The position numbers were made by a program, and so were the translations under genes. A stretch of DNA of 64,000 bases from Candidatus Eiseniibacteriota bacterium (lineage in GTDB: Bacteria; Arandabacterota; Arandabacteria; Arandabacterales; Arandabacteraceae): positions 1 through 64,000 of the forward strand of contig JBDRNT010000036.1 in the NCBI GenBank assembly GCA_043810925.1, in the 5' to 3' direction. Under the pieces are notes generated by a model. That model was not told the origin of the DNA. It worked only from the letters and a program-made list of their open reading frames with translations, and made no database searches. This document shows, in pieces, positions 27,739-61,595 of the stretch. Every line of letters begins with the position of its first letter. The stretch's first letter is position 1.

Positions 27739-27801
27739 GCCCGTGGCAAGAAAGCCCTAAAGCCCTGCCCGGCTTTTTCTTGCTTGCCACGGGGGTCGTG
27801 T

Positions 27802-30761: not shown

Positions 30762-30787
30762 CCTGATTTATCAGCCTGTCCGACTTG

Positions 30788-31210: not shown

Positions 31211-31283
31211 CAGATGAATTCACCTCCCCGAATACCTAAGTGGTTACCTGCCGATTCATACTGCTCGGTCTACTATGTGTTTG

Positions 31284-31299
31284 AGCAAGAAGCATACCA
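31284..31299 (-). promoter_or_regulatory. Sigma54 (-24/-12) promoter of the FN3 lipoprotein
   Basis: The minus strand reads TGGTATGCTTCTTGCT (GG-N10-GC). Paired TGCA-N3-TGCA palindromes at 31404-31414 and 31424-31434 lie at enhancer distance. Confidence 0.7.
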
Positions 31300-31464
31300 C
31301 GGGGAGACCATCTCAGGCATTGCCAACCCATTGCTCTTACAGGGCTTAGGATTAGGGATCCTGGACACCCCTTTGCCTGTCCGTCCTCATATGCAAAGTG
31401 AGGTGCAAGTTGCAATTATGACGTGCACAGTGCAAGAAGCAGCATCCGGGGTTGAAGGAAAGGT

Positions 31465-32424: not shown

Positions 32425-32450
32425 GCTGTCTACACACCTCACACAAATAG

Positions 32451-32550
32451 AAAAAGGCTGCCGATAATCCCGAGCGATCTTCGGCAGCCCGGTTATTCCC
32501 TTGAATACCAAGGCTTTGCGGGGATCCCCACCCTTTCGGTATCGCCCCTC
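32451..32550 (-). promoter_or_regulatory. c-di-GMP-I (GEMM)-like riboswitch variant with overlapping intrinsic terminator
   Basis: The minus strand has an ACC-GAAA-GG tetraloop arm, CGCAAAGCC, a P3 hairpin and GGGCTGCCGAA, then GGCTGCCGA...TCGGCAGCC-TTTTT ahead of the peptidase start. Confidence 0.6.
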
Positions 32551-32595
32551 AAACCTCCCGTACAGCCCCATCTCATACTACTATTTTGTACTACT

Positions 32596-32637: not shown

Positions 32638-32663
32638 GTCGCGGCAGACTCGTCTGCCGCGAC
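32638..32663. terminator. Perfect 11-bp hairpin at the end of the fliA operon
   Basis: GTCGCGGCAGA-CTCG-TCTGCCGCGAC; no clear U-tract. Confidence 0.45.
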
Positions 32664-32693: not shown

Positions 32694-32867
32694 CTACCGT
32701 TGGGTGTGGTGGGCCAGGCTGCGTAGCAGGCTTTCAGCCAGGTCCAGCAGAATGTGAGAGTTGTGTACGAGGATCCCTTCTTTCCTCAGGAGTCTGCAGA
32801 TCAGCCGCCCCCTGTGGAGATCCAGAGTGTCCTGTCTTATTTGCTTTGCGGAATTAGACCGTTGCAT
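32694..32867 (-). CDS. Putative 57-aa protein, last gene of the fliA operon
   Basis: MQRSNSAKQIRQDTLDLHRGRLICRLLRKEGILVHNSHILLDLAESLLRSLAHHTQR. The ATG overlaps the upstream gene's end, has a purine-rich RBS, and the stop is followed by a hairpin. Confidence 0.5.
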   Translation of the reverse strand: MQRSNSAKQIRQDTLDLHRGRLICRLLRKEGILVHNSHILLDLAESLLRSLAHHTQR

Positions 32868-33660
32868 CGATTCTCTCTTCCTTGAGACCTATCATCTTGA
32901 CCCCGTCGACATATTCCTCAGGCGCTGCCTGCCTGAGGGACTTCAGTCTTGCCACTACCGCCTCGACCTCGTTGCACTCGGCATCCACCTTATCCAGACT
33001 GCCGGCGATCTCGGGATCGAGATTGGCTGAGTTCCTCATGACGTGCACAGCGGCCTTTATGCCTGCGATACTGTTGTTGATGCTGTGGTTGATGCTCACG
33101 ACCACCTGGCCGATCGCGGCAAGCCGTTCGACCTTAACCAGATCTTCCTGAGTCTGACTGAGAAGGTCGTTCAGGTGCTCGAGCTCCTGGACCTTATTCT
33201 GCAGTGCTTCATTGGCACCGGTCAGCTCAAAGATCAGCCGTTCGTTCTCGAGACTGAGCGATCTCTTCTCGAGGGCTTTTTCCACGTGGGCCATGATCTG
33301 GGTCGAGGTCAGAGGCTTCGTCAGATACGAGACAGCACCTCTGTGCATGGCCTCCGCAGCCGATTTGACGGAAGCATAGCCGGTGATCATTATGAACTGG
33401 GTCAGTGGAAAGACTTTCTTAACACGGGCCAGGAGCTCGATCCCGGTGACCTCAGGCATCTCCAGGTCGGTGATCACGATATCATACTCCTGTGATGTCG
33501 AAGCAAGAAGTGCATCCTTTGAGACCGTAAAAAGATCCGAAGAGTAATCCGATTGCTTGAGAACCTCGCCCAACAGTTCGACAATGTCCTCGTTATCATC
33601 AACGACGGCGATCCTGATAATCTTCTTCTCTGCTCTTCCGGCTTCCTTATTGCGTTCCAT
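32854..33660 (-). CDS. Receiver domain, coiled coil and HisKA-like helix pair without an ATPase domain
   Basis: VVDD...TDLEMP...TKP receiver, then VERLAAIGQ..SINHSINN; the protein ends without N/G boxes. Confidence 0.85.
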   Translation of the reverse strand: MERNKEAGRAEKKIIRIAVVDDNEDIVELLGEVLKQSDYSSDLFTVSKDALLASTSQEYDIVITDLEMPEVTGIELLARVKKVFPLTQFIMITGYASVKSAAEAMHRGAVSYLTKPLTSTQIMAHVEKALEKRSLSLENERLIFELTGANEALQNKVQELEHLNDLLSQTQEDLVKVERLAAIGQVVVSINHSINNSIAGIKAAVHVMRNSANLDPEIAGSLDKVDAECNEVEAVVARLKSLRQAAPEEYVDGVKMIGLKEERIDATV

Positions 33661-34870
33661 GGTCTCCCCCATTTCGCCGTGGTAGCCACACCTGGAAGGT
33701 GCTCCCGCTCCCCGGTTCACTTCTGACCTCTATACTCCCGCCGTGGGCTTCGACTATCGCTTTCGCCACCGGCAGGCCAAGTCCAGCCCCGCGAAACCGG
33801 CGCGTGTGGGTCATATCGACCTGTGTGAAGGAGTCGAATATGCCCACCACCTTCTCATTTGCTATCCCGATCCCGCTGTCCAGAACAGATATCCGTACCC
33901 CGGCCGGGTCAGCGGTCCCGGATACGCCAACTTCGACATGCCCGGAGTCCAGGTTGAACTTTATGGCATTCTCCAGCAGGTTGGTAACCGCGACTCCCAG
34001 CTTCTCAGCGTCCCCCACGATCTTCTCCGTCTTCGCCGGTTTGAAATGAATGTCGACGTCTTTGGTTCGTGAGAGAGTGTCAAGTCGGGCGATCGAATCG
34101 TCGATGACCCGGTCTATATCAACCTCATCCTCAGCCACAAGCAGGCCTCCCGTATTGGCCTCCGTCATGAGAAGAAGGTTGAGTATCAGCATGTCAAGGC
34201 GGCCCAGGTTGTCCTTCATGGCCTTGAGCCACGTTTTCTCAGTATCGCCGCTGGCTCCACCATCCGACGCTGCCTTTGTAAGCATGGTCAGGTAGCCCTT
34301 GAGCGACATCAGCGGCGTGCGGAACTCGTGCGAGACCGTGCTGACGATGTTTGACTTTATCTGGTCTATCTCTATGAGTTTCTTCGTCAGATGTGAGAGC
34401 TCTATGTTCTCCCTCGCAAGCCGTCTCCTCTCCAGCCCATGCCTGACAGTGTTTTCCAGCTCATACAACGAGAAGGGCTTGACCACATAGTCGTATGCTC
34501 CCTTCTTCATCGCATCAACGGCTGACTGCACGCTGGCATAGCCGGTCATTATGATGAAGACGGTATCGGGGTCCGAATCGATCACCTGCTCGAGAAGCTC
34601 AACCCCGTTCATGTCCGGCAACCTCAAGTCGCTGATCACAACGGTGAACTTGTGTTCGTGGATAAGGCCCAGGGCTTGACGCGAGTTGACGGCCGTCTGC
34701 ACGTCATATCCGTGTGCGGACAGGAACTCGGATAGCGCATCGACCACGCTCTCCTCATCATCAATCACCAGCACCTTCTCTTTATCGAGGGCCGCTCCAT
34801 CCGCCGATGGCAGTCTTTTCTCGAGCACGGCTGTTGATGAGTCGTATTTCGATTGCTTCTTCTCAGTCAC
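33647..34870 (-). CDS. Hybrid REC-HisKA-HATPase histidine kinase
   Basis: VIDDE...SDLRLP receiver, SHEFRTPL, NLLENAIKF, DSGIGI and GAGLGL motifs. Confidence 0.93.
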   Translation of the reverse strand: MTEKKQSKYDSSTAVLEKRLPSADGAALDKEKVLVIDDEESVVDALSEFLSAHGYDVQTAVNSRQALGLIHEHKFTVVISDLRLPDMNGVELLEQVIDSDPDTVFIIMTGYASVQSAVDAMKKGAYDYVVKPFSLYELENTVRHGLERRRLARENIELSHLTKKLIEIDQIKSNIVSTVSHEFRTPLMSLKGYLTMLTKAASDGGASGDTEKTWLKAMKDNLGRLDMLILNLLLMTEANTGGLLVAEDEVDIDRVIDDSIARLDTLSRTKDVDIHFKPAKTEKIVGDAEKLGVAVTNLLENAIKFNLDSGHVEVGVSGTADPAGVRISVLDSGIGIANEKVVGIFDSFTQVDMTHTRRFRGAGLGLPVAKAIVEAHGGSIEVRSEPGSGSTFQVWLPRRNGGDHGTQ

Positions 34871-34888
34871 GTTCCTATCCTCCGCAAA

Positions 34889-35773
34889 TCAGCGGGTGGT
34901 GGCCAACTCGCGGGTGAATATGTCATCCGCGACAGCCGCAGGTGAGTCCGGCTCCATCGACGACTTCTCAGTAACCGCCGTAAGCAGTGAGTCCTCAACA
35001 GGTCTCAGCCGGCCCTTAAGCCTGAGCATAGCTTTGGTGTGTATCTGTGATACCCTGGACTCGGAGACTCCCAGGGTTCTTCCGATTTCTTTGAGCGTCA
35101 TGTCTTCATAGTAATAGAGAGCAACTACCGTTCTCTCCTTATCGGGCAGGTTCATGATCGCCGTGGCCAGAATGTTCTTCATCTCTTCGGTCTCAAGCGG
35201 CACCGACGGGCCCGCATCGCTCTTGGAACAGACAAGGTCGATCACGCGGGTGGTGCGGTCACCGTCCTGGTTGCCGACGAAATCGTCAAGCGACAGCAAC
35301 CCGGCGGAAGCCACCTCTTCGACGATCGTCTGGAACTCGCTCAAGGACATATTGAGTTTCCTTGAGGCTTCCTCATCACTTGCGGCCCTGCCGAGCTCGT
35401 TTTCAAGCTGGCTGTATGCTTCCTCGACCATCCTTGCTTTCCGGCGGACAGACCGTGGCACCCAGTCCAGAGATCTGAGGTCATCGACGATTGCACCCCT
35501 TATCCTCGCAACGGCATAGGTCTCGAACTTCGTGTCCCTGCCGGGATCATACTTGCCTATCGCATCTATAAGACCAACCACCCCCGCACTCACAAGATCG
35601 TCGATCTCTACCGACGGAGGTACCGACATGGCCATCTTGCCCGCCACGTACCTGACCAGGTAGAGGTAGTTCTGTATGAGTGTCTCTCTCACCTGTGCTG
35701 ACTGGCCTTTGCTGTAGGCTCGCCAGAGTTCCTGCAGTTCCTCAGGTGTGCAACCCACGCATGTCCTGTTCAT
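34889..35773 (-). CDS. fliA: FliA/WhiG-family RNA polymerase sigma factor (sigma28)
   Basis: DDLVSAGVVGL, KFETYA..RIRGAIVDDLRSLDWVPRSVR and TLKEIG..LGVSESRVSQIH motifs. Confidence 0.95.
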   Translation of the reverse strand: MNRTCVGCTPEELQELWRAYSKGQSAQVRETLIQNYLYLVRYVAGKMAMSVPPSVEIDDLVSAGVVGLIDAIGKYDPGRDTKFETYAVARIRGAIVDDLRSLDWVPRSVRRKARMVEEAYSQLENELGRAASDEEASRKLNMSLSEFQTIVEEVASAGLLSLDDFVGNQDGDRTTRVIDLVCSKSDAGPSVPLETEEMKNILATAIMNLPDKERTVVALYYYEDMTLKEIGRTLGVSESRVSQIHTKAMLRLKGRLRPVEDSLLTAVTEKSSMEPDSPAAVADDIFTRELATTR

Positions 35774-35833
35774 CTTTTCACCATCCTTGCTGTAGCCGAG
35801 TGGGCCAAACTCTGCAGACCGACAATGACCAAC

Positions 35834-35849
35834 TGCAACCTCTGTGCCC
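35834..35849 (-). promoter_or_regulatory. Sigma54 (-24/-12) promoter of fliA
   Basis: The minus strand reads GGGCACAGAGGTTGCA (GG-N10-GC), about 60 bp upstream of the ATG. Confidence 0.75.
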
Positions 35850-36095
35850 GCCACAGAATTACTCAGAATTTCGTGGATCGCAGATTATATGATGTATTGA
35901 CAAAGGGTTACACGACCACAACAAGACAAAACGGTAGGCGCACGGGTCTATCATGGTGCTTTTCATGCGCGAGGCCGATAACTGTAATGATTCTAAGAGG
36001 TTATGGTGCTCCGTGGCCCTGAGGCGTGAACACTGAGTGGTAGATTCCTAACCACATAGATCGGTCAGGAGAGGCAGGATGGCGTCATTAGCTTA

Positions 36096-36206
36096 GGTCT
36101 AACGCCAAGGGTCAAAGCGATGGACTGCAGGATGTGAAAAGGTCAAACAGAGTTACAAAGAGTCAAATCGAAGGTCAAATACAGCGAGGAGATACCGAGT
36201 GGCAAA
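36096..36206. promoter_or_regulatory. Cluster of (G/A)GTCAAA direct repeats, candidate activator enhancer for fliA
   Basis: GGTCAAA at 36110, 36141 and 36173, AGTCAAA at 36161, with variants at 36096 and 36201. Confidence 0.45.
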
Positions 36207-36221
36207 TAACTGGCCGACTGG

Positions 36222-37616
36222 CTAATCTTCACCCAGTTCAGCCGGCTTCAGTTTGTTCCTCAGCGTCTGCCTGGAGATTCCAAGCACACGTGCCGCTTTG
36301 CTCTTGTTCCCATCCGCCCAATCGAGGGCCGTCATTATGGCCCTGTGCTCTGCCTCCTTCAGGCTGATCGGCACGTGGCCGCCCCGGCTTGAGATCAAAC
36401 CGGACCCATCCGGTTCCCTTCCTTCCATGATGTCTCGCGGAAGATGCTCCGGCAGGATCAGATCGGTGCTTTCAAGCAGTATCGCTCGCTCTATGACGTT
36501 GCGCAGCTCCCTGACGTTGCCCGGCCAATCATAGTCCACCAGGATCTCGCGCGTCTCTCGCGACAGTCCGCGAACGGACTTCGCCAGTTCCACGTTGAAG
36601 TAGTCTGTGAAATAGAGAGCAAGTATGGGGATATCGCTTTTCCGCTCCCTCAAGGCCGGTACATAGATCGGGATCACCATCAACCGGAAATAGAGATCGT
36701 CGCGGAACCTCCCGTGCCGCATCGCAGCACGCAGATCACGATTCGTCGCGGCTATTATCCTTGTCTTGACCTCAATGTCCTTGACACCGCCTATCCGCCT
36801 GAATCTCTTTGTCTCGATGAGCCTCAGTACCTTGGTCTGGAGATTCGGAGGCATCTCCCCCACTTCATCGAGGAACAGTGAACCACCCTCGGCAAGGTCC
36901 ACGAGGCCTTTCTTCCCGGTCTTGGCATCCGTGAACGCCCCCTTCTCATAGCCGAAGAGCTCGCTCTCAAGAAGATTCTCCGGTACCGTGGCGCAGTTGA
37001 TTTCCATAAAGGGTTTGTCTCTGCCGCTCCCCTGGAAATGAATTGCTTTGGCTACAAGCTCCTTACCCGTGCCGCTTTCGCCCTGTATGAGTACTGTAGA
37101 TGCCTTGCTCGTTGCAACCTTCTCGATCACCTCGGCGATCTTCTGCATGAGCTCGCTCTTACCGAGCACGAAGGTGTCGGAACGGCGGTAGCCTACGATG
37201 ATCTGTCTTACTGATGCGGCTTCACGCTTCAGCCGGGCCCCGTCAAGCGCCCGGTCGACGATATCGAGTATCCTGTCGATCTCAACCGGTTTTGCGACAT
37301 ACTGAGAGGCTCCCAGTCTGGCTGCCTCAAAGGCCATCTCAATCTCAACCTGGCCCGCGACGAGTACGATTGCCGCATCCCTGTTCGCACGCCGGCATGA
37401 TTTGAGGAAATCCACATGGTCCGTCTCAACCTGGTCGGTATCGGCAATGAGGACATCGCACGCAAGACGGCCCAGGAGACCCAGAGCCTCATCAGGTGAG
37501 GACAACTCGGATACTGTGTGACCGGCACCCTGAAGCGCCCTGGTTATTTGTGACCTTGTGGTGCCGTCCTGGCCCAGAACAGCTATCTCAAACCCGCGGC
37601 TGTCTTTCTCAGCCAT
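36222..37616 (-). CDS. Sigma54-dependent activator (REC-AAA+-HTH) with an atypical receiver
   Basis: GESGTGKE, ELFGYEKGAFTDA, FRDDLYFRL, WPGNVREL and an HTH; the receiver acidic pocket is degenerate (VLGQD). Confidence 0.93.
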   Translation of the reverse strand: MAEKDSRGFEIAVLGQDGTTRSQITRALQGAGHTVSELSSPDEALGLLGRLACDVLIADTDQVETDHVDFLKSCRRANRDAAIVLVAGQVEIEMAFEAARLGASQYVAKPVEIDRILDIVDRALDGARLKREAASVRQIIVGYRRSDTFVLGKSELMQKIAEVIEKVATSKASTVLIQGESGTGKELVAKAIHFQGSGRDKPFMEINCATVPENLLESELFGYEKGAFTDAKTGKKGLVDLAEGGSLFLDEVGEMPPNLQTKVLRLIETKRFRRIGGVKDIEVKTRIIAATNRDLRAAMRHGRFRDDLYFRLMVIPIYVPALRERKSDIPILALYFTDYFNVELAKSVRGLSRETREILVDYDWPGNVRELRNVIERAILLESTDLILPEHLPRDIMEGREPDGSGLISSRGGHVPISLKEAEHRAIMTALDWADGNKSKAARVLGISRQTLRNKLKPAELGED

Positions 37617-37685
37617 AATTACCCCTGCGTCAATTTGTAGGTCATCTGGGGTCATAGTATTGAGAATGCCCTGGGAAGTCAACTA

Positions 37686-37922
37686 TCAAGAAGAGATGTT
37701 CTTGTATGCGACTTCTGAGATGAGGCGGGAGGCAATACCGCCGACTACACGCTCGGAATCGTAGTAGCCGCTGCATATCCTGATCCTCGCGGCGAACACC
37801 TTTCTGTCTCTTATTGTGTCGCTCTGCTCGCTGATCTCTTTTGCCATCTGTACACACTGGGATCTGATCTCAGCAGGCAGGTCCTTCACGATCCTCTTAT
37901 TATCTTTTCTATTCAAGGTCAT
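37686..37922 (-). CDS. FlgM-like anti-sigma28 factor
   Basis: C-terminal [18 protein letters not shown]...IASRLI matches the FlgM pattern; lies in a sigma28-driven operon near fliA. Confidence 0.65.
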
Positions 37923-38163
37923 CAGGCCCCCCATCCTTCGGGACTCCACGGCCGGACTTCAATCTGTCCTTGCGTGGCGTCTTGGGAACCACCCGTCCGT
38001 TCTCCCTGACTATTGCTTCGTACACCTCTCTCCGGTGAACGGGCACGTCCTTGGGAGCATTAATGCCCAGCTGCACCTGTTCACCCCTTATATCAACAAT
38101 CACAACTTCTATGTTGTCACCTATCATTATTCGTTCGTTGCGCTTCCGTGTAAGAATCAACAA
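37909..38163 (-). CDS. csrA: Carbon storage regulator CsrA
   Basis: MLILTRK..E.I.IGDNIEV...[23 protein letters not shown] start after AGGAGG. Confidence 0.97.
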
Positions 38164-38179
38164 CTCACTAGCCTCCTGC

Positions 38180-38542
38180 TCAGGAAGCAGACGGACTCAA
38201 TACAGGGATCTCGAGTTCAGCCAGCACATCCTCTACTGCATCACGGATTCTGAAGTATTTCGCCAGCCGGGTGATTCTGAGCATCTTGCCCGCTCTCGAA
38301 TCCACACCGACGAGCCATATCGTACCGCCTGCAGATGTGATCGACTTGGCATTCCCCACCAGCGTGCCCAGACCAGAACTATCCACCCTGGCAACCGCTT
38401 TGAGATCAAGCACGATATTCTTCGAGCCGTCGGCTATAAGCGACTGAATCGCTTCCCCGACAGCGCTGGCAGTATAGACGTCGATTGTGCCGTCTATCTC
38501 CACGATCGTGGAAGAGCCTCTCTGCGCGGTCGATATCTTCAG
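38180..38542 (-). CDS. STAS anti-sigma-factor antagonist (RsbV/SpoIIAA-like)
   Basis: GTIDVYTA and the phospho-Ser motif VDSSGLG. Likely CTG start at 38542; the ORF track gives GTG 38503. Confidence 0.9.
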
Positions 38543-38589
38543 AGTCCTTCACCCCCTCCTGACACTGTCTCCGTCCCGTTCATTTATAG

Positions 38590-38617
38590 TTATCGGCAGC
38601 CAGGCGACTTCACTGAA
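38590..38617 (-). promoter_or_regulatory. Sigma28 promoter of the STAS-csrA-flgM-like operon
   Basis: The minus strand reads TTCA-N16-GCCGATAA (perfect -10). Confidence 0.7.
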
Positions 38618-38618
38618 A

Positions 38619-40367
38619 CTACTTTTTCATGCTCGCTACAGCTTGCATAGAATAGATGTCATCTTCAAGTACAGTCCTCGTGACCCGCATGACTTCTTCC
38701 AGGCTCGTGATGCCCGCCGCGACCTTATCGACGCCGTCCTCGAACATCGTCCGGTAGCCCGTGTCTCGGGCCTTTTCGACGAGATCCTGCATGGGAGCAC
38801 GTGAAACGATCAAGCGCTTCATCTTATCGTTCATGACAACGAGCTCGTAGAGTCCGGTCCGTCCCTTGTATCCCGTGCCCTCGCATGCGTCGCACCCGAC
38901 TGCGTGTAAGGGGGCTTCGATCTTCCTGACCTGGCCGGTCTCGGGAATGAAGATGTCGACCGGCGGACTCTGGGTTGCGCACTCACGGCATACCTTCCGC
39001 ACAAGCCTCTGGGCAAGCATCGCGCCAACCGATGAAGCGACGAGGAACGGTTCTATCCCCATATCTATGAGTCTTACGACGCTTGAGATCGCATCGTTCG
39101 TGTGAACGGTCGTGAACACGAGGTGCCCGGTGAGCGCGGCCTGAATGGCTATCTCGGCCGTCTCAGCATCTCGGGTCTCACCCACCATGATGATATCAGG
39201 ATCCTGTCTGAGTAAGGACCTGAGCCCGCTGGCGAACGTGAACCCTGCGACAGGGTTGGTGTGACCCTGGTTTATGCCGGGGATCTGACTCTCCACGGGG
39301 TCTTCGAGCGTGACGATGTTTTTCTCGGTGTCATTCACCTTGTTGAGAGCGGCATAGAGGGTTGTGGTCTTGCCGCTGCCTGTCGGCCCGGTCACGAGCA
39401 CTATTCCGTGTGTCAGCCCGACAACCTGACCGAACTGGCGCAGGATGTCCTCGTTCATTCCCAGTTCCTCAAGCGCAATCGTCGTAGCGCTTCGCTCAAG
39501 GATTCTCATGACCACTTTCTCACCGTGGACAGTCGGGAACGTGGAAACACGAAGGTCGATCTTCCTGCCGGCAACACGCACCGTGAAACGGCCGTCCTGC
39601 GGTATGCGCCGTTCTGCGATGTTGATCCTTGCAAGGATCTTGAGTCTGGAAACCACGGCTGCCTTGAGCATCCTGGGTATCACCAGCTCCTCGTGGAGAA
39701 CGCCGTCCACACGGTACCTTATACTGAGCGATGTGTCACCCGGTTCGACATGGATATCACTGGCCCCTTTGCCTATGGCCCGTTCGATTATAAGATTGGT
39801 GATCTTGACAACCGGGGCTTCCTGGCTGAGCCTCTCGCCGTCGATCTGGTCGTTTTCCTCGGCCTCCTCCGCGGCATCCAACTCGCCGGTCGGAAGGTCC
39901 TCGAGTTCCTCGATCACGTTATCATCCTGGCCGTAGTACATGTCTATTGCGGCACGTATTTCCTCAGGTCTGGCAATAACCGGTTCGACTTCACAACCTG
40001 TCACAAAGCGTATTTCCTTTAGGGTCTCGGAATCGGTTGGATCCGCCATCGCGACCGTGATCGTCTTCTCAACCCTGAAGAGGGGAATCGCCGTTAGATC
40101 TCGTGCCATCGGCTCGGTTACCAGCCTGACAACTTCAGGATCGATCACGGTAGTGCCCAGGCTGATGAATGGGATCTTGAGTTGTTTGGCAAGCGCCTTT
40201 ACTATCTGTTCCTCGGTGGCAAAACCCTCATCAACGGCCACCTGTCCCAGACGCTTCCCCGTCCCCAGCTGTTTTGAAAGAAGCGTTTCGAGATCTTCAG
40301 CACTGATTATGCCCGCTTCGATCAGCAACCCACCCAGTTTGTTCTTCAAGAGTCCTTTTTCGTTCAT
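38619..40367 (-). CDS. PilB/GspE-family ATPase with an N-terminal MshEN c-di-GMP-binding domain
   Basis: Tandem (K/R)LGxxxxxxGxxxxxxLxxxLxxQ-like repeats, ASDIH, GPTGSGKTTT, LRQDPD, TGHLVFTT, tetracysteine and GYKGR motifs. Confidence 0.93.
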   Translation of the reverse strand: MNEKGLLKNKLGGLLIEAGIISAEDLETLLSKQLGTGKRLGQVAVDEGFATEEQIVKALAKQLKIPFISLGTTVIDPEVVRLVTEPMARDLTAIPLFRVEKTITVAMADPTDSETLKEIRFVTGCEVEPVIARPEEIRAAIDMYYGQDDNVIEELEDLPTGELDAAEEAEENDQIDGERLSQEAPVVKITNLIIERAIGKGASDIHVEPGDTSLSIRYRVDGVLHEELVIPRMLKAAVVSRLKILARINIAERRIPQDGRFTVRVAGRKIDLRVSTFPTVHGEKVVMRILERSATTIALEELGMNEDILRQFGQVVGLTHGIVLVTGPTGSGKTTTLYAALNKVNDTEKNIVTLEDPVESQIPGINQGHTNPVAGFTFASGLRSLLRQDPDIIMVGETRDAETAEIAIQAALTGHLVFTTVHTNDAISSVVRLIDMGIEPFLVASSVGAMLAQRLVRKVCRECATQSPPVDIFIPETGQVRKIEAPLHAVGCDACEGTGYKGRTGLYELVVMNDKMKRLIVSRAPMQDLVEKARDTGYRTMFEDGVDKVAAGITSLEEVMRVTRTVLEDDIYSMQAVASMKK

Positions 40368-42166
40368 TTCTGTAAACCCACTGTCTGTGCCGTCAGGCAA
40401 TCCATGTTGTTCTTAAAAGCCCTGCACTCCGCACATCTCTTGTCTGCATGGGGGCTTCCATCCCGGGCCGAGTGACACGCCACCCCCTCGGTGAGGAAAC
40501 AGCGCCAGTCATCCTGCACGTACGCCGGGCAACGGCCCCGGAGCGCGGGATCACAGTCCGTGATCTGCCAGCACTTCCTTGAGCCCACCCCGTCGACATC
40601 GGGATGTATGTTCTTTACCGCCGCGTGTACCGCATCCGCGACATCGTCGATCGTAGTGAGATACATGGAGACTTCATCCCGTATGCGTTCAAGCGAGATC
40701 ATCGACTTATCCAGATCGTCTTCACCCCTTGCCAGCGCCTCCGAAAGAGGTCCGGTGTCAGGAGCTCGTTCAGGCCCATGAGGAGCCGCCACGTCATGGC
40801 CGGTCTGGGACAGCACTTTCACCACCGTTGCGGTGGCAAGTGTCTCTCCCGTCGTCCATTTTGCGAATTTATGCGATTCAAGCCGCCTTGCTATGTCGGT
40901 CACCCTGTGTATCGAGCGAACCACGTGACTACTGTCGATCTTGTGTTCGAACGTCGACGCCGCGATCTGCTTGGCCATGCTTCGTGAAGATTCGAATGAC
41001 TCGAACACTTTCTCAAGCACCATCCCCGCGTTGCGCGTCAGCAGCTCGCCTCTCTCGACTCTCTGCAGGCTCTTCTTCATACCCTGCACGACGTTGGCGA
41101 CATTCTGCTGTACAGCCCTGACGAGGTCACTGATCTCCTGGGTGGAGGAACTTGTTCTTTCCGCAAGTCCCCTTATCTCCTCGGCAACGACCCCGAACGC
41201 CTTGCCGTGTTCACCCGACTGGGCCGCGATGATCGCTGCGTTCAGAGCGAGAAGATTGGTCTCATCTGCAATATCTCCGATCACCTCGACGATCTTACCG
41301 ACCTCTTGCGACCATCGTCCAAGGTCTTCGACTGCGGTCGCAGCCTCTTTGACTGTTGCTATGATGGCTTCGTTCTCTTTAGCCATCTCCCCAACAACCT
41401 TGGTGCCCTCGAGGGCAACCCGGTTGGCGGTGTCTGTTGACGATTCAAGTTCCTTCCCGCTGTTGGCCATATCCTGTAAAAACGAATCAAGACGTGACAT
41501 TGAGTATGCGGTCTCTTCGGTCGAGGCGATCAACTCCTTGGCGTTGTGGTCGACCTCCCTCAGGGTCTCCCCCATCTCTCTCACGCCCGAGATTACCTCA
41601 TCGAGGACGGAACCTACCGCGGAAGGCGCGCCGGCGACCGGAATGCCCATTGCTCCGGGGTTCTCCCCTCCTGCCTTGCTTGCGGGTGCCGAAGATGCGC
41701 CGCCACCGGATGTTTCCCGCGCAGAAGCCAGTGTGGTCTTCAGTGCCGTGCACCTGTCAAGTGCGTTTTGAACCGCCTCGAGGATTCCCGCACCGGTAGT
41801 CTTTGCCGCGTCTCTTGTTCCGGACACCCGGACTGCAATCTCGTAGCAGGTTCTCAGGATCTCCCCGCACGAGAACCTGCGGTCGAGGATCCCGGCCGCG
41901 AAGTCGGAGTAACCGTCAAGACCGGGCACGGCCGTCTGGCTCGCCTCTCTGCCGTTCCTTATGGATTCCGACAGCCTTAGCAGTGGCAGCTCATACCTGA
42001 CCAGCCGCCGCAACCAGACAGCGAAGGACAGTCCGATGAAGATGACCGTGCATACCATCACAATGACGCCCCAGTGGGTAAGCACACCGGCTATGGAACA
42101 GACGAGGGCCAGTCCCATGGATGAAGTCAGGAGCCAGATGTCTCGTGGAACTTTATGCTTCGCCAA
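40364..42166 (-). CDS. Methyl-accepting chemotaxis protein with a C-terminal Cys-rich (two-CW-like) domain
   Basis: Two adjacent N-terminal TM helices, hairpin tip IADETNLLALNAAIIAAQSGEHGKAFGVVAEEIR and a Cys-rich tail; TTG start after AGGAGG. Confidence 0.9.
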   Translation of the reverse strand: MAKHKVPRDIWLLTSSMGLALVCSIAGVLTHWGVIVMVCTVIFIGLSFAVWLRRLVRYELPLLRLSESIRNGREASQTAVPGLDGYSDFAAGILDRRFSCGEILRTCYEIAVRVSGTRDAAKTTGAGILEAVQNALDRCTALKTTLASARETSGGGASSAPASKAGGENPGAMGIPVAGAPSAVGSVLDEVISGVREMGETLREVDHNAKELIASTEETAYSMSRLDSFLQDMANSGKELESSTDTANRVALEGTKVVGEMAKENEAIIATVKEAATAVEDLGRWSQEVGKIVEVIGDIADETNLLALNAAIIAAQSGEHGKAFGVVAEEIRGLAERTSSSTQEISDLVRAVQQNVANVVQGMKKSLQRVERGELLTRNAGMVLEKVFESFESSRSMAKQIAASTFEHKIDSSHVVRSIHRVTDIARRLESHKFAKWTTGETLATATVVKVLSQTGHDVAAPHGPERAPDTGPLSEALARGEDDLDKSMISLERIRDEVSMYLTTIDDVADAVHAAVKNIHPDVDGVGSRKCWQITDCDPALRGRCPAYVQDDWRCFLTEGVACHSARDGSPHADKRCAECRAFKNNMDCLTAQTVGLQK

Positions 42167-42205
42167 CAGAACCTCCTGAGTTCGGCATGATGGCATTCCT
42201 TTTAT

Positions 42206-42233
42206 CTATCGTCAAACACCCGACTTTGCATTA
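42206..42233 (-). promoter_or_regulatory. Sigma28-like promoter of MCP-pilB
   Basis: The minus strand reads TAAT-N16-GACGATAG. Confidence 0.45.
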
Positions 42234-44768
42234 GAGGTTCCGTGCAAGATCAGGTCGGGAAACGTCCCCGGACCCGTCGCGGCCCAGAAGTGCCCGGCTG
42301 AGTGTGCCGCGAATATCGAGAACCCTCACCCCGCTGCCCTTCCACTCGAATACACCGAACGTCGCGAGACCACTGGATCCGTCCTGGAGAGGATCGGGTT
42401 TCAGCCTCTGGTGTGGAAGCACGAAGTGCCCGAGCACTTCAGTGGCACCGAAGCCGCATCTTTCCGGGAACTTAAGCAAGATCATTCTGCGAATGTTCTC
42501 TTGCCCGGCCGCTCCGGGCCCCGGCATCCCGATCAACCCATGACACATTCCCCGGGCGAAGAAGAGACCCTGCCATTCCTTGCCGAGTACGGGCATAGCA
42601 GTGATTCTGCGGGTCGGGATGACCTCGCTCAGCAACCCAAGGGGTACGCCGTATAGATCGCCCCCCCGGCTGAAGACGAGGATTCTGAGCATCCTCTCCC
42701 GCGTCCATTCCTCGGCGGGGGCGGAAGTCCCCGACAGGAGCTCTTCGGCGGTATCGACTCTGACTTCGCATTCACCAGCGGATTCTCTGAGTATCTCCTC
42801 AGGCTGGATTATCACAGCAGCTCTTCCATCGTCCAGTTCCGCAGCGCCTGTAATGAAACGCGGTGCAATCATCGCTGCGGGTAGCGGCCGAGTCACGATA
42901 TCGGTCTCACCGCGTACTCTTTCTACCGCTACCGCACGTCTGCTCTCACCAACGCCCACAATCACGATGAAGCCGGCGTCACGGGGTTCGTCAATCCCGA
43001 ACATTTCCGAGAGCACCGCCACCCTTATATCGACACCCTTGTACGTGATTGTCCCCTTCTCCTCTACCTCTTCACGCCTGGCTCGGGTGAGACGCAGAAC
43101 CTCGACTACGCTGCCGAGCGGTACTACCGCCGGCACGTCGCCCTCTTCCACAAGAATACCTCTCGATACCGCAAGCGCCAGAGGCACCCAGATGGAGAAC
43201 TTGGACCCTTCGCCGGGGTGTGTGTCGACGGTTATCATGCCTCTCATGGCTTCGATCTGGGTCTTGGCGGCATCGAGCCCGACCCCGCGCCCCGAGATTT
43301 CGTCCGCCTCTTCCTTGGTGCTCAAGCCCGCTTTAAAGAGCAGAACAAGCGGAGACTCGCCGTCCTCAAGCCGGATCCCCCTGGCTTTGGCCGAAGCCCT
43401 GACCTTCTCCTCGTCTATGCCGCGGCCATCGTCCTCTATATCGATTCGAATGTGACTGCCGTCCTGTCGGGCCTTGACCAGGATCGTACCCTCAGCGGGT
43501 TTGCCGCTTTGGGTTCTCTCATCGGATGATTCGATCCCGTGGTCGACCGCGTTCCTTATGATGTGGAGTACAGGATCGTGAAGCCGCTGAAGGAGAGCCC
43601 TGTCCACCTGTGTGGACTCGCCCTCAAACGCCAGTTTGAGCGTCTTGCCCCTGTGCCTGGCAAGCCTTCTGACTTCTCCCCTGTAGCGTTCAAACAGCAT
43701 CGAAATGGGTGTCAGTCGCACCGAGGTGATCGAGCCTTCAAGGTCCGCGATCCGCTTGTCGAGCAGGATACCGAGTTTCAGGAGATCGTCCCTGAGCCTC
43801 CTTGTGCGGTCGCTGCGAGGGAGCCTGTTGGCGACTCCCATCAGTCCCGCTCTCACCGTGTAAATCTCGCTCACCGTATTCATCATGGAATCGAGAATCG
43901 CAATATCGACCTTGACCGCAAGCTGCGACTTCACCGGTACGCTATCATCGGCCTTGCTCTCACCAGGGCCCTTTCCGCCTGTATCAGCCTTTTCGGTGCC
44001 CTGACTCACGGGTTGGCCGGACGTACGCTTCCGGGGGGTGATCTCTCGAACCCGGGCGCCCACCACTGCGACCATATTCTCGAACTCGTCGTGGCTACCG
44101 CTGAGCACGTACACGAGACGTATGCTGGATCGTGCGCCTGCCGTGGTGGGAAAGACCCAGATGATCTCACCGAGACCCGCCAGGCTTCTGAGTTTCTCGC
44201 CGTTGGTACCGAAACCTGTGTCACCCGCCCCAATCTCGATGTCATAGACACGGTTCCCGCGCCTCAGACTCTTTACGACCGACCGCTGCTCCAACGGCTG
44301 GAGGTCTCTTAGAATCTCGTCATCGAGAATTGTGTCGAGCTCCGGTGAACCGCCCGTGTCCGTATCCTTAGACTGGGTGCTGAGCGAGGCAAGGAAGGCC
44401 TCTATCTTGCGCACGACTGCGGCGGAATCATCTTCAGCATCATAGCCCGTCGCTCTCTTAAGCAAGATGCCCATCTCGTCGAGAGCTTCAAGAAGGAGAT
44501 CCGCCACCGCGCTGTCGACAGCAAGATCTCCACTGCGTACAAGCTCCAGCAGGTTCTCCACGGCCTCCGCAACCTTCGAAACCCCGTGAAGATCAAACAT
44601 CCCCGCAGTGCCCTTGAGTGAATGGGCTGTGCGAAAGAGCAGGTCCACCTGTGACCGGCCTATCGACTCGTCCGGTTCTCGCCCTGTAAGGCTCCTTGAC
44701 ATCTCCTCGATTGTCTCGGAAGCGTCAGCGATGAAGTCCTGCTTCATCCGCGCCATAGGATCGTGCAT
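42231..44768 (-). CDS. cheA: Chemotaxis histidine kinase CheA with an extra C-terminal CheW-like domain
   Basis: HPt FRTAHSLKG, P4 HIIRNAVDHGIE, DDGRGI and SGRGVGLD, P5, then a second CheW-like domain (LVFSRGGDLYGVPL..LSEVI). Confidence 0.93.
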   Translation of the reverse strand: MHDPMARMKQDFIADASETIEEMSRSLTGREPDESIGRSQVDLLFRTAHSLKGTAGMFDLHGVSKVAEAVENLLELVRSGDLAVDSAVADLLLEALDEMGILLKRATGYDAEDDSAAVVRKIEAFLASLSTQSKDTDTGGSPELDTILDDEILRDLQPLEQRSVVKSLRRGNRVYDIEIGAGDTGFGTNGEKLRSLAGLGEIIWVFPTTAGARSSIRLVYVLSGSHDEFENMVAVVGARVREITPRKRTSGQPVSQGTEKADTGGKGPGESKADDSVPVKSQLAVKVDIAILDSMMNTVSEIYTVRAGLMGVANRLPRSDRTRRLRDDLLKLGILLDKRIADLEGSITSVRLTPISMLFERYRGEVRRLARHRGKTLKLAFEGESTQVDRALLQRLHDPVLHIIRNAVDHGIESSDERTQSGKPAEGTILVKARQDGSHIRIDIEDDGRGIDEEKVRASAKARGIRLEDGESPLVLLFKAGLSTKEEADEISGRGVGLDAAKTQIEAMRGMITVDTHPGEGSKFSIWVPLALAVSRGILVEEGDVPAVVPLGSVVEVLRLTRARREEVEEKGTITYKGVDIRVAVLSEMFGIDEPRDAGFIVIVGVGESRRAVAVERVRGETDIVTRPLPAAMIAPRFITGAAELDDGRAAVIIQPEEILRESAGECEVRVDTAEELLSGTSAPAEEWTRERMLRILVFSRGGDLYGVPLGLLSEVIPTRRITAMPVLGKEWQGLFFARGMCHGLIGMPGPGAAGQENIRRMILLKFPERCGFGATEVLGHFVLPHQRLKPDPLQDGSSGLATFGVFEWKGSGVRVLDIRGTLSRALLGRDGSGDVSRPDLARNL

Positions 44769-44789
44769 ATACGTTTGCCTCCATACGAA

Positions 44790-44817
44790 CAATCGGCACG
44801 TTGGCGACAAGCCTTTA
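44790..44817 (-). promoter_or_regulatory. Sigma28 promoter of cheA
   Basis: The minus strand reads TAAA-N16-GCCGATTG, just upstream of the GGAGG RBS. Confidence 0.7.
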
Positions 44818-44843
44818 TAATTGCTGGAAATGAAGGTGAGATT

Positions 44844-45218
44844 TTACTGCTGGAGAGTCCCTTCCGCCAGATACTGTTCAATCATCAGCCGGTCATAGCT
44901 GTCTATTTCCGTGAAGAAACATCCTATCTCGTATGTCTTAGTCTTGTCGTCGGGTTTCTCAGGAACAATTCGGACCACCATGCCCTCACACACAATGACG
45001 TGTTCCTCATCCTTGCCGGCCGTGTCCCGGATCGGGATTGCTATGGACACCCTGAGTTTGGTGAGTACCGGGACGAAGAAGGGCACCTTGCAATAGAACC
45101 CGCCGGCGCTCAGGTTTACGGTTCTGGCTTTGAATGCGTGTCCGTCGGCGGACAGACCCTTGGCGTCGATCGGCACCTCAAGTGTCGCGCGCCGGTGTTT
45201 TCTCCTCTCCTCAACCAT
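44844..45218 (-). CDS. Stand-alone PilZ domain protein
   Basis: RxxxR (ERRKHRR) and (D/N)xSxxG (NLSAGG) motifs; ATG after AAGGAGGG. Confidence 0.92.
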   Translation of the reverse strand: MVEERRKHRRATLEVPIDAKGLSADGHAFKARTVNLSAGGFYCKVPFFVPVLTKLRVSIAIPIRDTAGKDEEHVIVCEGMVVRIVPEKPDDKTKTYEIGCFFTEIDSYDRLMIEQYLAEGTLQQ

Positions 45219-45356
45219 TCTGCCCTCCTTGCTTGAGCCACCCAATCGTAGCAGATGACGCGACAAAGCCGCAAGATCTTTCCTTAACCATTGACTTCGA
45301 CACGGATTGAAATATCATTAAGTTGGAAGACCGACTTGGGGTATTGGAGGAGAGAC

Positions 45357-46226
45357 GTGAATCGCACGGTTCTGGTTGGCCTGTTCATCCTTGTGTTCAT
45401 GGTGGCCTGTGGCCGGGACCGGGACCGTCCTGAGCCTGTAGCCGCCAACATCACCTGGTATACGTCGATAGATGAGGCGGAACTCGACGCCCAGCAAGAC
45501 GGAGACCTCATGTTACTCAGTTTCGGGGCGTCCTGGTGTCCATGGTCAAGACTCATGAGAGAAAGCCTTTTTGTGAATAGCGCGGTAGTCGAGTCACTGG
45601 CCTCTGTCCGGTGCGTGGGAATCAACATCGATCGAGACACCAGCCTCGTTCGGGAATTCGGCGTAGTCCTCTATCCGACCGCAGTTGTGACGGACGCCTA
45701 TGGAGGCGAGATCGGCAGGATGACCGGGTACCACACGCCTGAGGAGTTCCTCGCACGGCTGACCTGTCTCAGGCAGCGTGAGGATGAGCTCGCCGGCATG
45801 TTCAAACAGGAAGAGACCCTGGCCAACGATCCTACTTTCCTCATCGCTTTCGGGAAGTTCTTGGTCGAGATGGGGATGTATGACGGAGCACTGATAAGGT
45901 TTGACCGGGCCACACAGATTGATGAGGATGACCGTTTCGGCACGCTCGAGGAGGCCACGTATTCACTTGCGGAGTGTTACATGCTCGACCACGAGTACAA
46001 GGAAGCCGCGCGCAGGTTCCGGCTGTTCACCGGGGAATATCCCGGCAGCGACAGGGCCGAGCAGGCTGCGGTCCTTGCCGCACTCTGCTATCAGGAAGTC
46101 GACTACTACAAAGTGGCTACAGAAATATACGAGGACTATCTGGAGACCTTCCCGGACGGCGAGTTTGCTCAATTCGTGAGGGCGAGGATTGACAGCCTGG
46201 AGGCGAGGAAACAAAACGGAAGCTGA
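45357..46226 (+). CDS. Lipoprotein with a thioredoxin-like domain (WCPWS) and TPR repeats
   Basis: GTG after GGAGGAG, lipobox MVAC, FGASWCPWS, YPT cis-Pro loop and TPRs. Confidence 0.85.
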   Translation: MNRTVLVGLFILVFMVACGRDRDRPEPVAANITWYTSIDEAELDAQQDGDLMLLSFGASWCPWSRLMRESLFVNSAVVESLASVRCVGINIDRDTSLVREFGVVLYPTAVVTDAYGGEIGRMTGYHTPEEFLARLTCLRQREDELAGMFKQEETLANDPTFLIAFGKFLVEMGMYDGALIRFDRATQIDEDDRFGTLEEATYSLAECYMLDHEYKEAARRFRLFTGEYPGSDRAEQAAVLAALCYQEVDYYKVATEIYEDYLETFPDGEFAQFVRARIDSLEARKQNGS

Positions 46227-46303
46227 TTTGTGCTTTTCTCTCGCCTCGGTCATGACGATATGATACAATGTGCGGCGTCTAAGTAACTGAAGGGAGACAT
46301 ACA

Positions 46304-47167: not shown

Positions 47168-47209
47168 GGCTGAGCCTGTCCGGGATTCAGATCTAACGCG
47201 CCCTGGAAC

Positions 47210-53371: not shown

Positions 53372-53467
53372 CGCAGCCTCCCCGGCCGGGGCATCAAACA
53401 TAGCCCGCATGAGCGATCTTACCACGTCTCCGCCATGCGAAGCAAGGTAGACGACCTGCACCTGTTC

Positions 53468-60239: not shown

Positions 60240-60381
60240 CGGCACCAGTTTCAGCTAAAGAATCCACAAAGGTGGTCGACCAACTGGGTGAGGTGCGGCC
60301 ACCCCGGGCGGTGAGTATATTGCTCCCGCACCCGCCACGTTTAGGCAATCGCGCCAGGGATCGTAGCGGAGGTAAGGAATC

Positions 60382-61575: not shown

Positions 61576-61595
61576 TATCGTTCGCAATGGAGCCG

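Follow-up and report, generated by a model that had tools for sequence, protein, structure and literature searches.

What is a flagellar regulatory system doing in a genome in which no flagellar genes are found? This question is raised by a block of 12 co-oriented genes on the minus strand at positions 32694-45218 of a 64,000-nucleotide (nt) stretch of DNA, hereafter referred to as the window, which represents contig C36 of a Candidatus Eisenbacteria metagenome-assembled genome (MAG; 3.85 Mb, 185 contigs, 91.74% complete, 1.83% contamination). Sigma-28, FlgM and CsrA are textbook elements of flagellar assembly control, in which FlgM is switched off by export through the very structure that is being controlled. 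In the block, referred to here as the island, genes for sigma-28, CsrA and a small FlgM-like protein stand together with those for a chemosensory core and a sigma-54 activator. The analysis suggests that the island rather likely encodes a working sigma-54/sigma-28 circuit of flagellar type, which in this genome (G000) would operate independently of a flagellum. Because non-flagellated lineages retain the genes for sigma-28, the FlgM-like protein and CsrA, flagellum-independent use is considered the best reading of the locus.

Gene content of the island

The gene content was derived from a list of open reading frames (ORFs) along with Pfam and NCBIfam scans of the window proteins, the Pfam scans taking in 58 ORFs chosen from a greedy ORF call. 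The genes of the island, in the direction of transcription, and the features associated with them are as follows:

44844-45218, minus strand: single-domain PilZ protein, candidate receptor of cyclic diguanylate (c-di-GMP) (PF07238, E-value 1.8e-11; the ORF extends to 45266, likely ATG at 45218)
44791-44817, minus strand: predicted sigma-28-type promoter, TAAAG-N15-GCCGATT, between the PilZ gene and cheA (pattern conserved in 7/7 loci)
42231-44810, minus strand: CheA fused to two CheW domains (Hpt, dimerisation, HATPase_c, CheW, CheW; Pfam; likely ATG near 44768)
40364-42196, minus strand: methyl-accepting chemotaxis protein (MCP) with an N-terminal hydrophobic hairpin and a Cys-rich C-terminal tail (PF00015, E-value 9.6e-35)
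38619-40400, minus strand: MshEN-PilB/GspE-like secretion ATPase (T2SSE, E-value 6.1e-135; MshEN, E-value 7.5e-24)
38180-38542, minus strand: STAS anti-sigma-factor antagonist (TIGR00377, 69 bits; cut-off 53.45)
37909-38163, minus strand: CsrA with a conserved basic C-terminal extension (TIGR00202, 85.7 bits; cut-off 70.1)
37686-37922, minus strand: FlgM-like protein of 78 amino acids (aa), candidate anti-sigma-28 factor (alignment of orthologues; its start overlaps the end of csrA)
36222-37682, minus strand: sigma-54 activator (NtrC/AtoC-like) with a receiver (REC) domain, an AAA+ domain and a Fis-type helix-turn-helix, HTH_8 (Sigma54_activat, E-value 8.1e-66)
36368-36392, minus strand: second sigma-28-like site, TCAAG-N15-GCCGA, within the 3' end of the activator gene (pattern match; present in 7 f1 loci)
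35834-35849, minus strand: predicted sigma-54 promoter, GGGCAC-N5-TTGCA (best sigma-54 match of the window, one mismatch; ~60 nt before the sigma-28 ATG)
34889-35773, minus strand: sigma-28 of the FliA/WhiG family, 294 aa (TIGR02479, 270.1 bits; cut-off 189.6)
33647-34870, minus strand: REC-HisKA-HATPase_c hybrid kinase (Pfam; always adjoins the sigma-28 gene, outgroup flagellar clusters included)
32854-33720, minus strand: REC-HisKA protein without an ATPase domain, possible phosphotransfer protein (Pfam; orthologues in relatives)
32694-32867, minus strand: conserved 57-aa ORF overlapping the stop of the preceding gene (tblastn, 36-52% identity at the same position in 7 loci; no Pfam match)
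32638-32663, minus strand: perfect 12-bp inverted repeat (hairpin) ending the block, with no T-run after it (sequence reading)
27784-30390, plus strand: PDZ-GAF-SpoIIE (PP2C) phosphatase, candidate STAS phosphatase (SpoIIE, E-value 4.3e-49)

The genes that an earlier sequence-only reading had listed for the island, as well as their place and shared orientation, were borne out by the ORF, Pfam and NCBIfam evidence. The same reading called the island self-contained; this overstates the case, because rpoN, any output genes and all RsbW-type kinases are located outside of it. Its mention of sigma-54 holds for the activator and for the sigma-54 promoter; rpoN itself is found on another contig of the genome.

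The sigma-28 protein probably starts at ATG 35773 (294 aa) rather than at GTG 35854, because its orthologues begin there and five of them have no start codon upstream of the match. The STAS protein probably starts at a non-ATG codon, with orthologue comparison pointing to CTG 38542, located behind an AGGAGG sequence. The 57-aa ORF at the end of the block is regarded as real because of its conserved position and its identity across the seven loci. The PilZ protein, orthologues of which occupy the equivalent position in six loci, carries the RxxxR-like sequence 'RRKHRR' and the sequence 'NLSAGG', which we take to be the PilZ motifs. Upstream of the block, the ORF at 45284-45640 (-) was rejected as spurious: it has no family match and lies nearly entirely inside a thioredoxin-like gene of the opposite strand. 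The Rfam scan of the window revealed three tRNAs and no other known RNA family.

Absence of flagellar genes

The sequence-only reading had noted that flagellar structural genes are missing from the 64 kb, and Pfam scans of the 58 ORFs indeed gave none. The absence extends to the whole assembly (91.74% complete), in which FHIPEP, Flagellin_N, Flg_bb_rod, YscJ_FliF, FliW and FliG_C had no matches; these Pfam families were matched in the named control genomes. For a more sensitive search, 16 genes of the flagellar cluster of G005, a family-level relative, were translated and used as tblastn queries. None of the 13 flagellar structural or assembly proteins among them (FliW, FlgL, FlgK, FlgJ, FlgI, FlgH, FlgA, FlgG, FlgF, FapA, FlhF, FlhA and FlhB) had a match in the genome at an E-value of 1e-3 or below, and the flagellar FliA of G005 matched the island sigma-28 (45% identity). 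MotA was left out of the flagellar tests because its family also covers ExbB/TolQ. By the FHIPEP and tblastn searches, no FlhA/FlhB export gate was found in the genome, nor were flagellin, motor or hook-associated target genes of sigma-28 found by the Pfam and tblastn searches.

FlgD_ig was rejected as a flagellar sign, the only such matches in the window being Ig-like domains of proteins with type IX secretion system (T9SS) tails. Por_Secre_tail and/or FlgD_ig C-terminal domains mark T9SS cargo at 31465-32571 (-), 49199-53461 (-) and 59028-62994 (+).

Conserved promoters of the island

The 450-nt spacer before the sigma-28 gene holds the sigma-54 site, and a site of the pattern GGCA[C/T]-N5-[T/C]TGCA is found 52-77 nt before the sigma-28 ATG in all 13 loci of the order. 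Upstream of cheA, the pattern T[A/C]AAG-N15-GCCGA is present in each of the seven loci that cover the PilZ-cheA spacer; within the window it has three matches, with 0.20 expected, the other two being those at 36368 and at 14255. The status of the site at 36368 is uncertain because it lies inside a coding sequence. Based on these sites, the sigma-54 promoter is predicted to drive the sigma-28 gene, and the sigma-28-type promoter is predicted to drive an operon comprising the genes for CheA-W, MCP, the PilB-like ATPase, STAS, CsrA, the FlgM-like protein and the activator, so that sigma-28 would feed back on its own activator and on its own inhibitors.

Looser scans of the window did not rise above chance: the strict sigma-28 pattern with three mismatches gave two matches (2.47 expected), and the sigma-54 pattern with two mismatches gave 16 (15.1 expected). 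Promoter claims made here use only conserved, best-scoring sites. Elsewhere in the window, a sigma-28-type site, TAAAG-N15-GCCGAAG, is located at 14255-14281 (+), 4 nt before the ORF of a HisKA-HATPase kinase (14285-15973). This kinase is followed by a second REC-sigma54 activator (15976-17397), which may be a second link from sigma-28 to sigma-54.

Conservation of the island and flagellar state of the relatives

The comparison set consisted of 18 genomes of the class, 16 of which belong to the order (f1/f2, G000 included) and two of which are further, class-level relatives (f3). Orthologues of the island sigma-28 were found in 12 of the 15 other order genomes (64-78% identity) and in both other class genomes (52-53%). 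The order of the genes is identical in those 12 order-level genomes, flagellated or not, as far as their contigs reach, and the arrangement is therefore not a matter of chance. All 12 ORFs are intact in G000 and in other non-flagellated genera. The class-level island keeps CheA, MCP, the FlgM-like protein, the activator and sigma-28, and the ATPase is missing from it. The PP2C phosphatase adjoins the island in all five relatives checked, as well as in one f3 locus and two outgroup loci. Downstream of the phosphatase gene, a 240-aa ORF without a family match (30785-31507, +) is probably a real gene of the phosphatase operon, since it is conserved at the same position in 5/5 relatives (27-34% identity).

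Of the 18 class genomes, 11 have FlhA and seven, G000 among them, do not; the island occurs in both kinds. In a LeuRS tree of the 18 genomes, which is a single-marker tree with one relevant node supported at 80/68, the presence and absence of FlhA requires at least four changes. The non-flagellated genomes fall into four LeuRS groups (G006; G008; G000 and G001; G003, G009 and G012), and the island is present in all of them, G001 excepted.

Flagellated relatives carry a further set of the regulators. A second FliA-family match (37-43% identity) was found in eight flagellated genomes, within ~2 kb of flhA in seven of them; two copies of CsrA are present in seven genomes, and a non-flagellated genome has at most the island copy. 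The gene order of the flagellar cluster of G005 is flhB-flhA-flhF-fliA-fapA-HDOD-flgF-flgG-flgA-flgH-flgI-flgJ-(flgN-like)-flgK-flgL-fliW-csrA. The sequence-only reading had regarded a flagellar gene set in close relatives as a point against its own view. The outcome on this point is mixed: such sets do exist, as the distribution of FlhA shows, but the flagellar clusters lie elsewhere in these genomes and have their own fliA, csrA-fliW and a weak FlgM match.

Island sigma-28 and its origin

All three regions, Sigma70_r2, r3 and r4, were found in the sigma-28 protein, which passes the TIGR02479 cut-off. The best NCBIfam model is the WhiG equivalog NF004935/PRK06288, to which the protein scores 322.7 bits, under the cut-off of 343. 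Past region 4, the protein has a C-terminal extension of ~35 residues (34889-35000, -) with the conserved end E-L-V-S-T-H; this extension is present in the f1/f2 orthologues and absent from the 251-aa FliA of the flagellar cluster.

A tree of 57 FliA-family sequences places the f1/f2 island copies in one clade (99% SH-like approximate likelihood-ratio test (SH-aLRT) support), which groups (84-87%) with the island copies of f3, with three other Eiseniibacteriota-type sequences and with two more sequences. The FliAs of the flagellar clusters of the class form a separate, long-branch clade, and the island sigma-28 is the less divergent copy. The tree was obtained by a quick search, its deep nodes are supported at 83-87% SH-aLRT and it carries long-branch warnings. 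The possibility that the island sigma-28 is a recent duplicate of the flagellar fliA was rejected, the two copies not being sisters in the tree.

The trio of genes for sigma-28, the REC-kinase and PP2C looks like an old flagellar-cluster neighbourhood, because three outgroup loci have the order flhB-flhA-flhF-sigma28-...-REC-kinase-...-PP2C. Judging from gene content across the comparison set, it looks as if in the class this trio was joined to the genes for PilZ, CheA, MCP, the FlgM-like protein and the activator, and as if the ATPase, STAS and CsrA were gained in the order.

FlgM-like protein

The 11 aligned orthologues of the 78-aa protein share the core R-x-D-K-I-x-A-A-R-x-R-I-x-S-G-Y-Y-D-S-x-x-V-x-x-x-I-A-x-R-L-L, and in class-level relatives the ORF between the MCP and activator genes ends in a similar G-Y-Y-D-x-P-E-V. 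A profile of the orthologues gave a second, weak match (E-values from 1.8e-5 to 0.078, positions ~43-68) in all nine flagellated f1/f2 genomes and in none of the seven non-flagellated ones. Seven of these nine second matches lie on contigs with flagellar genes, and one coincides with the sole Pfam FlgM match of the class. The Pfam FlgM model itself matched in one of the 18 class genomes, below cut-off, and is too insensitive in this phylum to decide either way.

In a search of a large protein collection, 117 clusters of the FlgM-like family were found, none of which has a Pfam domain; those to which a source gives a name are called 'hypothetical protein', with one automatic HEPN label. In the Atlas cluster search, the cluster at rank 6 carries FlgM on 10% of its members. 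The profile search of the PDB with the FlgM-like alignment gave a single chance-level match (E-value 1.1).

A model of the complex of sigma-28 with the FlgM-like protein, with two alignments as input, reached an ipSAE of 0.62, compared to 0.00 for the best of three controls; this mark is reached by 116 of 157 solved complexes and by 2 of 215 mismatched pairs. At least 81% of contacts are the same between the runs, the predicted local distance difference test (pLDDT) value of the partner is at least 77, and the modelled contacts fall on sigma residues 30-69 and 195-252, that is, on regions 2 and 4. The structure of a sigma-28/FlgM complex has already been solved, and the result is therefore to be read as likeness to it and is no proof of binding. 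With that limit, the model supports binding of sigma-28 by the 78-aa protein, and the protein is predicted to be FlgM-like in function without being counted as a member of PF04316.

Signalling proteins of the island

No CheW domains besides the two of the island CheA occur in the genome, and the Hpt domain of CheA keeps the histidine motif 'HSLKG'. According to the Pfam scans, no CheY is encoded in the block. Neither CheB nor CheR is found in the island; the sole CheR domain of the genome lies in a 1007-residue open frame on another contig, and CheB was not searched for. The gene content is Che3-like: MCP, CheA and CheW are present, CheY is missing from the block, and a REC-sigma54 activator is encoded alongside. 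Three REC domains are found in the block, those of both HisKA proteins being canonical, and the f3 orthologue of the activator gave a strong REC match. The C-terminus of MCP (40364-40600, -) forms a Cys-rich tail of ~70 residues with nine cysteines and no family match, and tblastn matches extend into it in four orthologues. Binding of a metal or an Fe-S cluster, along with redox sensing, is a possible role of this tail.

The ATPase carries the c-di-GMP motif of MshEN (NF053729, PF05157; 56.7 bits, cut-off 38), so that binding of c-di-GMP is predicted. It is an orphan third paralogue, as the genome has three such ATPases, and it scores below the equivalog cut-offs for both PilB (TIGR02538, 605.7 vs 675.65) and GspE (TIGR02533, 610.4 vs 630.25). 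No partner genes of a pilus or type II secretion system (T2SS) were found in the block by Pfam. A GGDEF diguanylate cyclase gene lies within the window at 9869-10948 (+) and could provide c-di-GMP locally to the PilZ and MshEN proteins.

The 'DSSGLG' motif of STAS, presumably containing a phosphorylatable serine, is kept in 11/11 orthologues listed, in one of them as DSTGLG. On contig C170, at ~45752-47200 (+), a sigma-28-like site TAAAT-N15-GCCGATAC precedes a gene for an RsbW-type kinase and a 115-aa ORF that is STAS-like by eye; the end of the upstream ORF resembles, also by eye, a SpoIIE/PP2C phosphatase. This second, putative partner-switching set could supply the kinase missing from the island.

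CsrA also exceeds the cut-off of NF002469 (90.4 vs 73) and is the sole CsrA of the genome. For FliW, neither PF02623 nor tblastn with the FliW of G005 gave a match in the genome. In the leader of the sigma-28 gene, the ribosome-binding site carries a conserved AAGGAUGGUGA, and 5 of the 13 leaders contain another GGA 11 nt ahead of it. A conserved CsrA hairpin in this leader was considered and dropped, because no shared structure appeared on folding (alifold energy 0.0).

Candidate sigma-28 targets

Across the order (16 genomes), the strict pattern TAAA-N14-16-GCCGATA[A/T] had 77 matches compared to 11 for the reversed control, and in the seven non-flagellated genomes it had 35 compared to 4. 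In G000, six strict matches to the cognate promoter TAAA-N15-GCCGATAA were found, and none to its reversed control. A relaxed pattern gave 13 intergenic matches out of 22 in G000, compared to 1 of 16 in the control, the coding fraction being 0.89 by a crude ORF call. Two more relaxed matches, before cheA and on contig C103, were scored as coding, in the case of cheA because the CheA ORF is over-long.

The genes behind the sites in G000 are mostly those of signalling and envelope functions. The candidate targets include a PAS protein with a PAS-GAF kinase, two HEAT-repeat proteins (one followed by an HD_5 domain protein), a TonB-dependent receptor, a YfiR/HmsC-like protein, a 129-aa CheY-like receiver, an ABC substrate-binding protein, a MoxR ATPase and a non-coding stretch of contig C15.

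The C15 stretch (~29440-29711, -; locus L117, ~3441-3712) has tandem sigma-28 promoters, TAAAGTC-N13-GCCGATAA, 103 nt apart, and no credible ORF behind them. In its predicted fold, a short hairpin is accompanied by a long one that resembles a terminator and has a U-run behind it. Its core is kept in G001 and G008 with five compensatory pairs, and matches were also found in G007. In a search of the C15 intergenic DNA against the 16 genomes, long matches were confined to the same genus, and an 85-nt conserved core was found in two other genera. The stretch is a candidate sigma-28-dependent small RNA; non-coding RNAs dependent on sigma-28 have been described in Campylobacter (PMC4626219). The Rfam search around the C15 candidate and the sigma-28 leader gave nothing above noise. 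Beside the small-RNA candidate (L117:3030-3119, C15) lies a ~90-nt repeat, also present on C89, C35 and C161, with 27 matches in G011 and several in G007. The repeat, for which no Rfam family was found, may be a miniature mobile element.

Comparison with known systems

In polar flagellates such as Vibrio, Pseudomonas, Legionella and Campylobacter, an enhancer-binding protein and sigma-54 stand above fliA, and sigma-28 drives che genes, MCP genes and flgM. The island has the same layout from sigma-54 to sigma-28, without the structural genes or the basal-body checkpoint, and its activator is NtrC/AtoC-like by score rather than an equivalog of FleQ, FlrA or FlgR. In Bacillus subtilis, FliW, CsrA and flagellin form a partner switch. 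The likeness here lies in a CsrA with a C-terminal extension placed among flagellar-type regulators, and flagellated relatives have fliW-csrA behind flgK/flgL; unlike in B. subtilis, the island CsrA has neither a FliW nor a flagellin partner in this genome. WhiG of Streptomyces and sigma-28 of Chlamydia are FliA-family factors that serve developmental programmes without flagella. Their anti-sigma partners and inputs differ from those proposed for the island, the sigma-28 of which scores under the WhiG cut-off.

A review on Legionella (PMC5655016) describes that L. oakridgensis, which has no flagella, keeps FliA and FlgM, that flgM is sigma-28-dependent there and that degradation is proposed as the route of release, and also that the non-flagellated L. 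longbeachae keeps che genes. As in that account, sigma-28 and its candidate anti-sigma factor are kept here after loss of the flagellar regulon, with a release that would not depend on export. In contrast to Legionella, the present pair belongs to a block of 12 genes that also encodes CheA/MCP, a sigma-54 activator, CsrA, STAS and a PilB-like ATPase, and the case further involves a second full set in flagellated relatives, a small protein that Pfam does not recognise as FlgM, and an uncultured phylum.

In the HptB-HsbR-HsbA system of Pseudomonas aeruginosa (PMC5085249), a PP2C-type phosphatase sets the STAS protein HsbA, which releases sigma-28 by binding FlgM; the hsb genes lie beside flgM, cheW/cheR and a PilZ gene and are linked to c-di-GMP. 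The island differs from it in having no HsbR-type REC-PP2C-kinase or Hpt protein and no flagellum, its PP2C has PDZ and GAF domains and lies 2.3 kb away, and its STAS-FlgM binding is putative. The Che3 pathway of Myxococcus xanthus is a chemosensory pathway without CheY, with the NtrC-like sigma-54 activator CrdA as its output (PMC3147164). Che3 includes CheB, CheR and a separate kinase, CrdS, and is not known to have a layer of sigma-28, FlgM or CsrA.

Proposed circuit and competing explanations

According to the scheme proposed here, sigma-54 and the activator would make sigma-28, which would then make the operon running from CheA to the activator. Phosphate from CheA would go to the adjacent activator, at its REC domain, with the two REC-HisKA proteins as possible further recipients, and a sensed signal would thereby become sigma-28 synthesis, as with Che3 via CrdA in Myxococcus. 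We infer phosphotransfer from CheA to the activator as the most economical reading, with a possible role of the REC-kinase pair as a side relay or a sink. The FlgM-like protein would keep sigma-28 inactive by wrapping around its regions 2 and 4. Because no flagellar export gate is present, release would have to occur via a partner switch or proteolysis, either through a STAS switch set by PP2C and a putative kinase, in the manner of HsbA-FlgM, or by degradation as proposed in L. oakridgensis. STAS partner switching is a plausible route, and it is the leading candidate because dephosphorylated HsbA binds FlgM and frees FliA in P. aeruginosa. In a genome without FliW, the AAGGAUGG ribosome-binding site in the leader of the sigma-28 gene may be a target of CsrA, and PilZ and the MshEN ATPase may add a c-di-GMP input. 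We infer this input, as well as the output of the island and the roles of STAS and CsrA, from gene content. The sequence-only reading, which called the island c-di-GMP-responsive, went further than its sole basis, a PilZ domain and the MshEN motif.

In a fuller version of this scheme, which is put forward as a doubtful proposal, the circuit would be autonomous. A chemoreceptor array would govern transcription instead of movement, acting through the NtrC-like activator and sigma-54 on sigma-28, with the unannotated, export-independent FlgM-like family providing the hold and STAS/PP2C the release, and the FliW-less CsrA would be a translational brake with a new antagonist, possibly a sigma-28-driven small RNA or an island protein. 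The control logic would have been duplicated and would have served a non-flagellar regulon of envelope, c-di-GMP and signalling genes before the flagellar losses.

Several observations weigh against a flagellum-independent circuit, and some of them fit a different explanation, namely that the island is a chemotaxis or late-gene unit of the flagellum in flagellated relatives and a module left behind, with little or no function, in G000. The island CheA is the sole CheA-type match in flagellated G002, G005, G013 and G014, and the CheA search gave no match in flagellated G007, G010, G011 and G015; an additional canonical CheA is found only in G004 and G017. It may therefore be that the island still serves the flagellum in those species that have one. 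Among the outgroup copies of sigma-28, the nearest (49-52% identity) stand directly after flhB-flhA-flhF, with the REC kinase behind them as well, and the promoters are of the canonical flagellar sigma-28 type. Furthermore, G001, a member of the same genus (86% complete), has no match for the island sigma-28, CsrA, FlgM-like protein or CheA. This is either an assembly gap or a real loss, a gap being possible because the LeuRS contig of G001 is just 3.3 kb long. G001 nevertheless has several sigma-28 promoter sites in common with G000, one of which is identical in every letter. G000 itself is a MAG in 185 contigs. The individual parts of the circuit raise points of their own. The 78-aa protein of the window has no Pfam or NCBIfam match and fails PF04316, which is the top family for its orthologues but a weak one (3 of 11 match, best E-value 0.054), so that what stands of the label FlgM-like comes from weak profile and Pfam signals and from the complex model. 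In the activator, the acceptor Asp and the Lys of the REC domain are retained, but Q-D stands in place of D-D and Ala in place of Thr. No RsbW-type (HATPase_c_2) kinase is encoded in the window, and six are found elsewhere in the genome. The AAGGAUGG motif may simply be the ribosome-binding site in a leader without a conserved fold, and the regulon consists of candidates from motif matches and the crude ORF call.

Despite these points, loss of function in G000 is considered unlikely. All 12 ORFs are intact here and in other non-flagellated genera, both promoters are conserved, and the island is found in three of the four non-flagellated LeuRS groups plus G000, thus having survived several flagellar losses. 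The sigma-28 promoters are enriched in genomes without flagella (35 vs 4), and flagellated relatives keep a separate regulator set, with fliA, csrA-fliW and a weak FlgM match, in their flagellar clusters. For these reasons the circuit appears to be kept rather than a relic. The word repurposed, used by the sequence-only reading, calls for care in view of the CheA distribution and the outgroup sigma-28 loci.

A flagellum need not be involved at all if the island is a Chp/Frz-like pathway that steers a type IV pilus via the PilB-like ATPase and PilZ, with sigma-28 as a side branch. The ATPase with its MshEN motif and the PilZ gene do lie in the block, pilus ATPases are encoded elsewhere in the genome, and the island is the only chemosensory core of the genome. 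Nevertheless, the island has no pilin, PilC, PilM-Q or CheY/PilG-like output, its ATPase, the third of three paralogues, scores under the cut-offs of the PilB and GspE equivalogs, the class-level island drops this ATPase and keeps CheA, MCP, the FlgM-like protein, the activator and sigma-28, and the conserved promoters tie the block to transcription control. Pilus control is thus quite improbable, and the link to a pilus/T2SS-type ATPase drawn by the sequence-only reading comes down to adjacency. Even less probable, in our estimation, are two interchangeable sigma-28 systems acting on the same promoters, of which the island would be a second input to late genes in flagellated species and would have inherited the non-flagellar share elsewhere. 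The enrichment of one canonical pattern in flagellated and non-flagellated genomes alike would agree with this, as would the lower divergence of the island sigma-28 compared to the long-branch copy of the flagellar cluster, but the deep nodes of the tree have just 83-87% SH-aLRT support along with a long-branch warning. A working circuit of flagellar type used without a flagellum accordingly remains the explanation that we prefer.

Significance

Several parts of this arrangement are known: FliA/FlgM or che genes kept without flagella (Legionella), a STAS-FlgM switch (Pseudomonas) and chemosensory control through an NtrC-like activator (Myxococcus). What is new is their combination in one conserved operon pair with a closed promoter loop, the inclusion of a FliW-less CsrA, an unannotated FlgM-like family and the comparison of flagellated and non-flagellated sisters. 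The best matches in the Eisenbacteria literature, judged by title and abstract opening, include none on regulation, and the best matches in the literature on non-flagellar sigma-28 paralogs describe no such island.

As the organism is uncultured, the value of the finding lies in a design principle and in annotation. The analysis defines an unannotated FlgM-like family and a short list of candidate sigma-28 targets, and sister genomes that carry the island with or without a flagellar set offer a natural comparison. If a lineage retains sigma-28, FlgM and CsrA under conserved sigma-54 and sigma-28 promoters, along with its sole chemosensory kinase, through several independent flagellar losses, it would show which other uses flagellar control logic can have.

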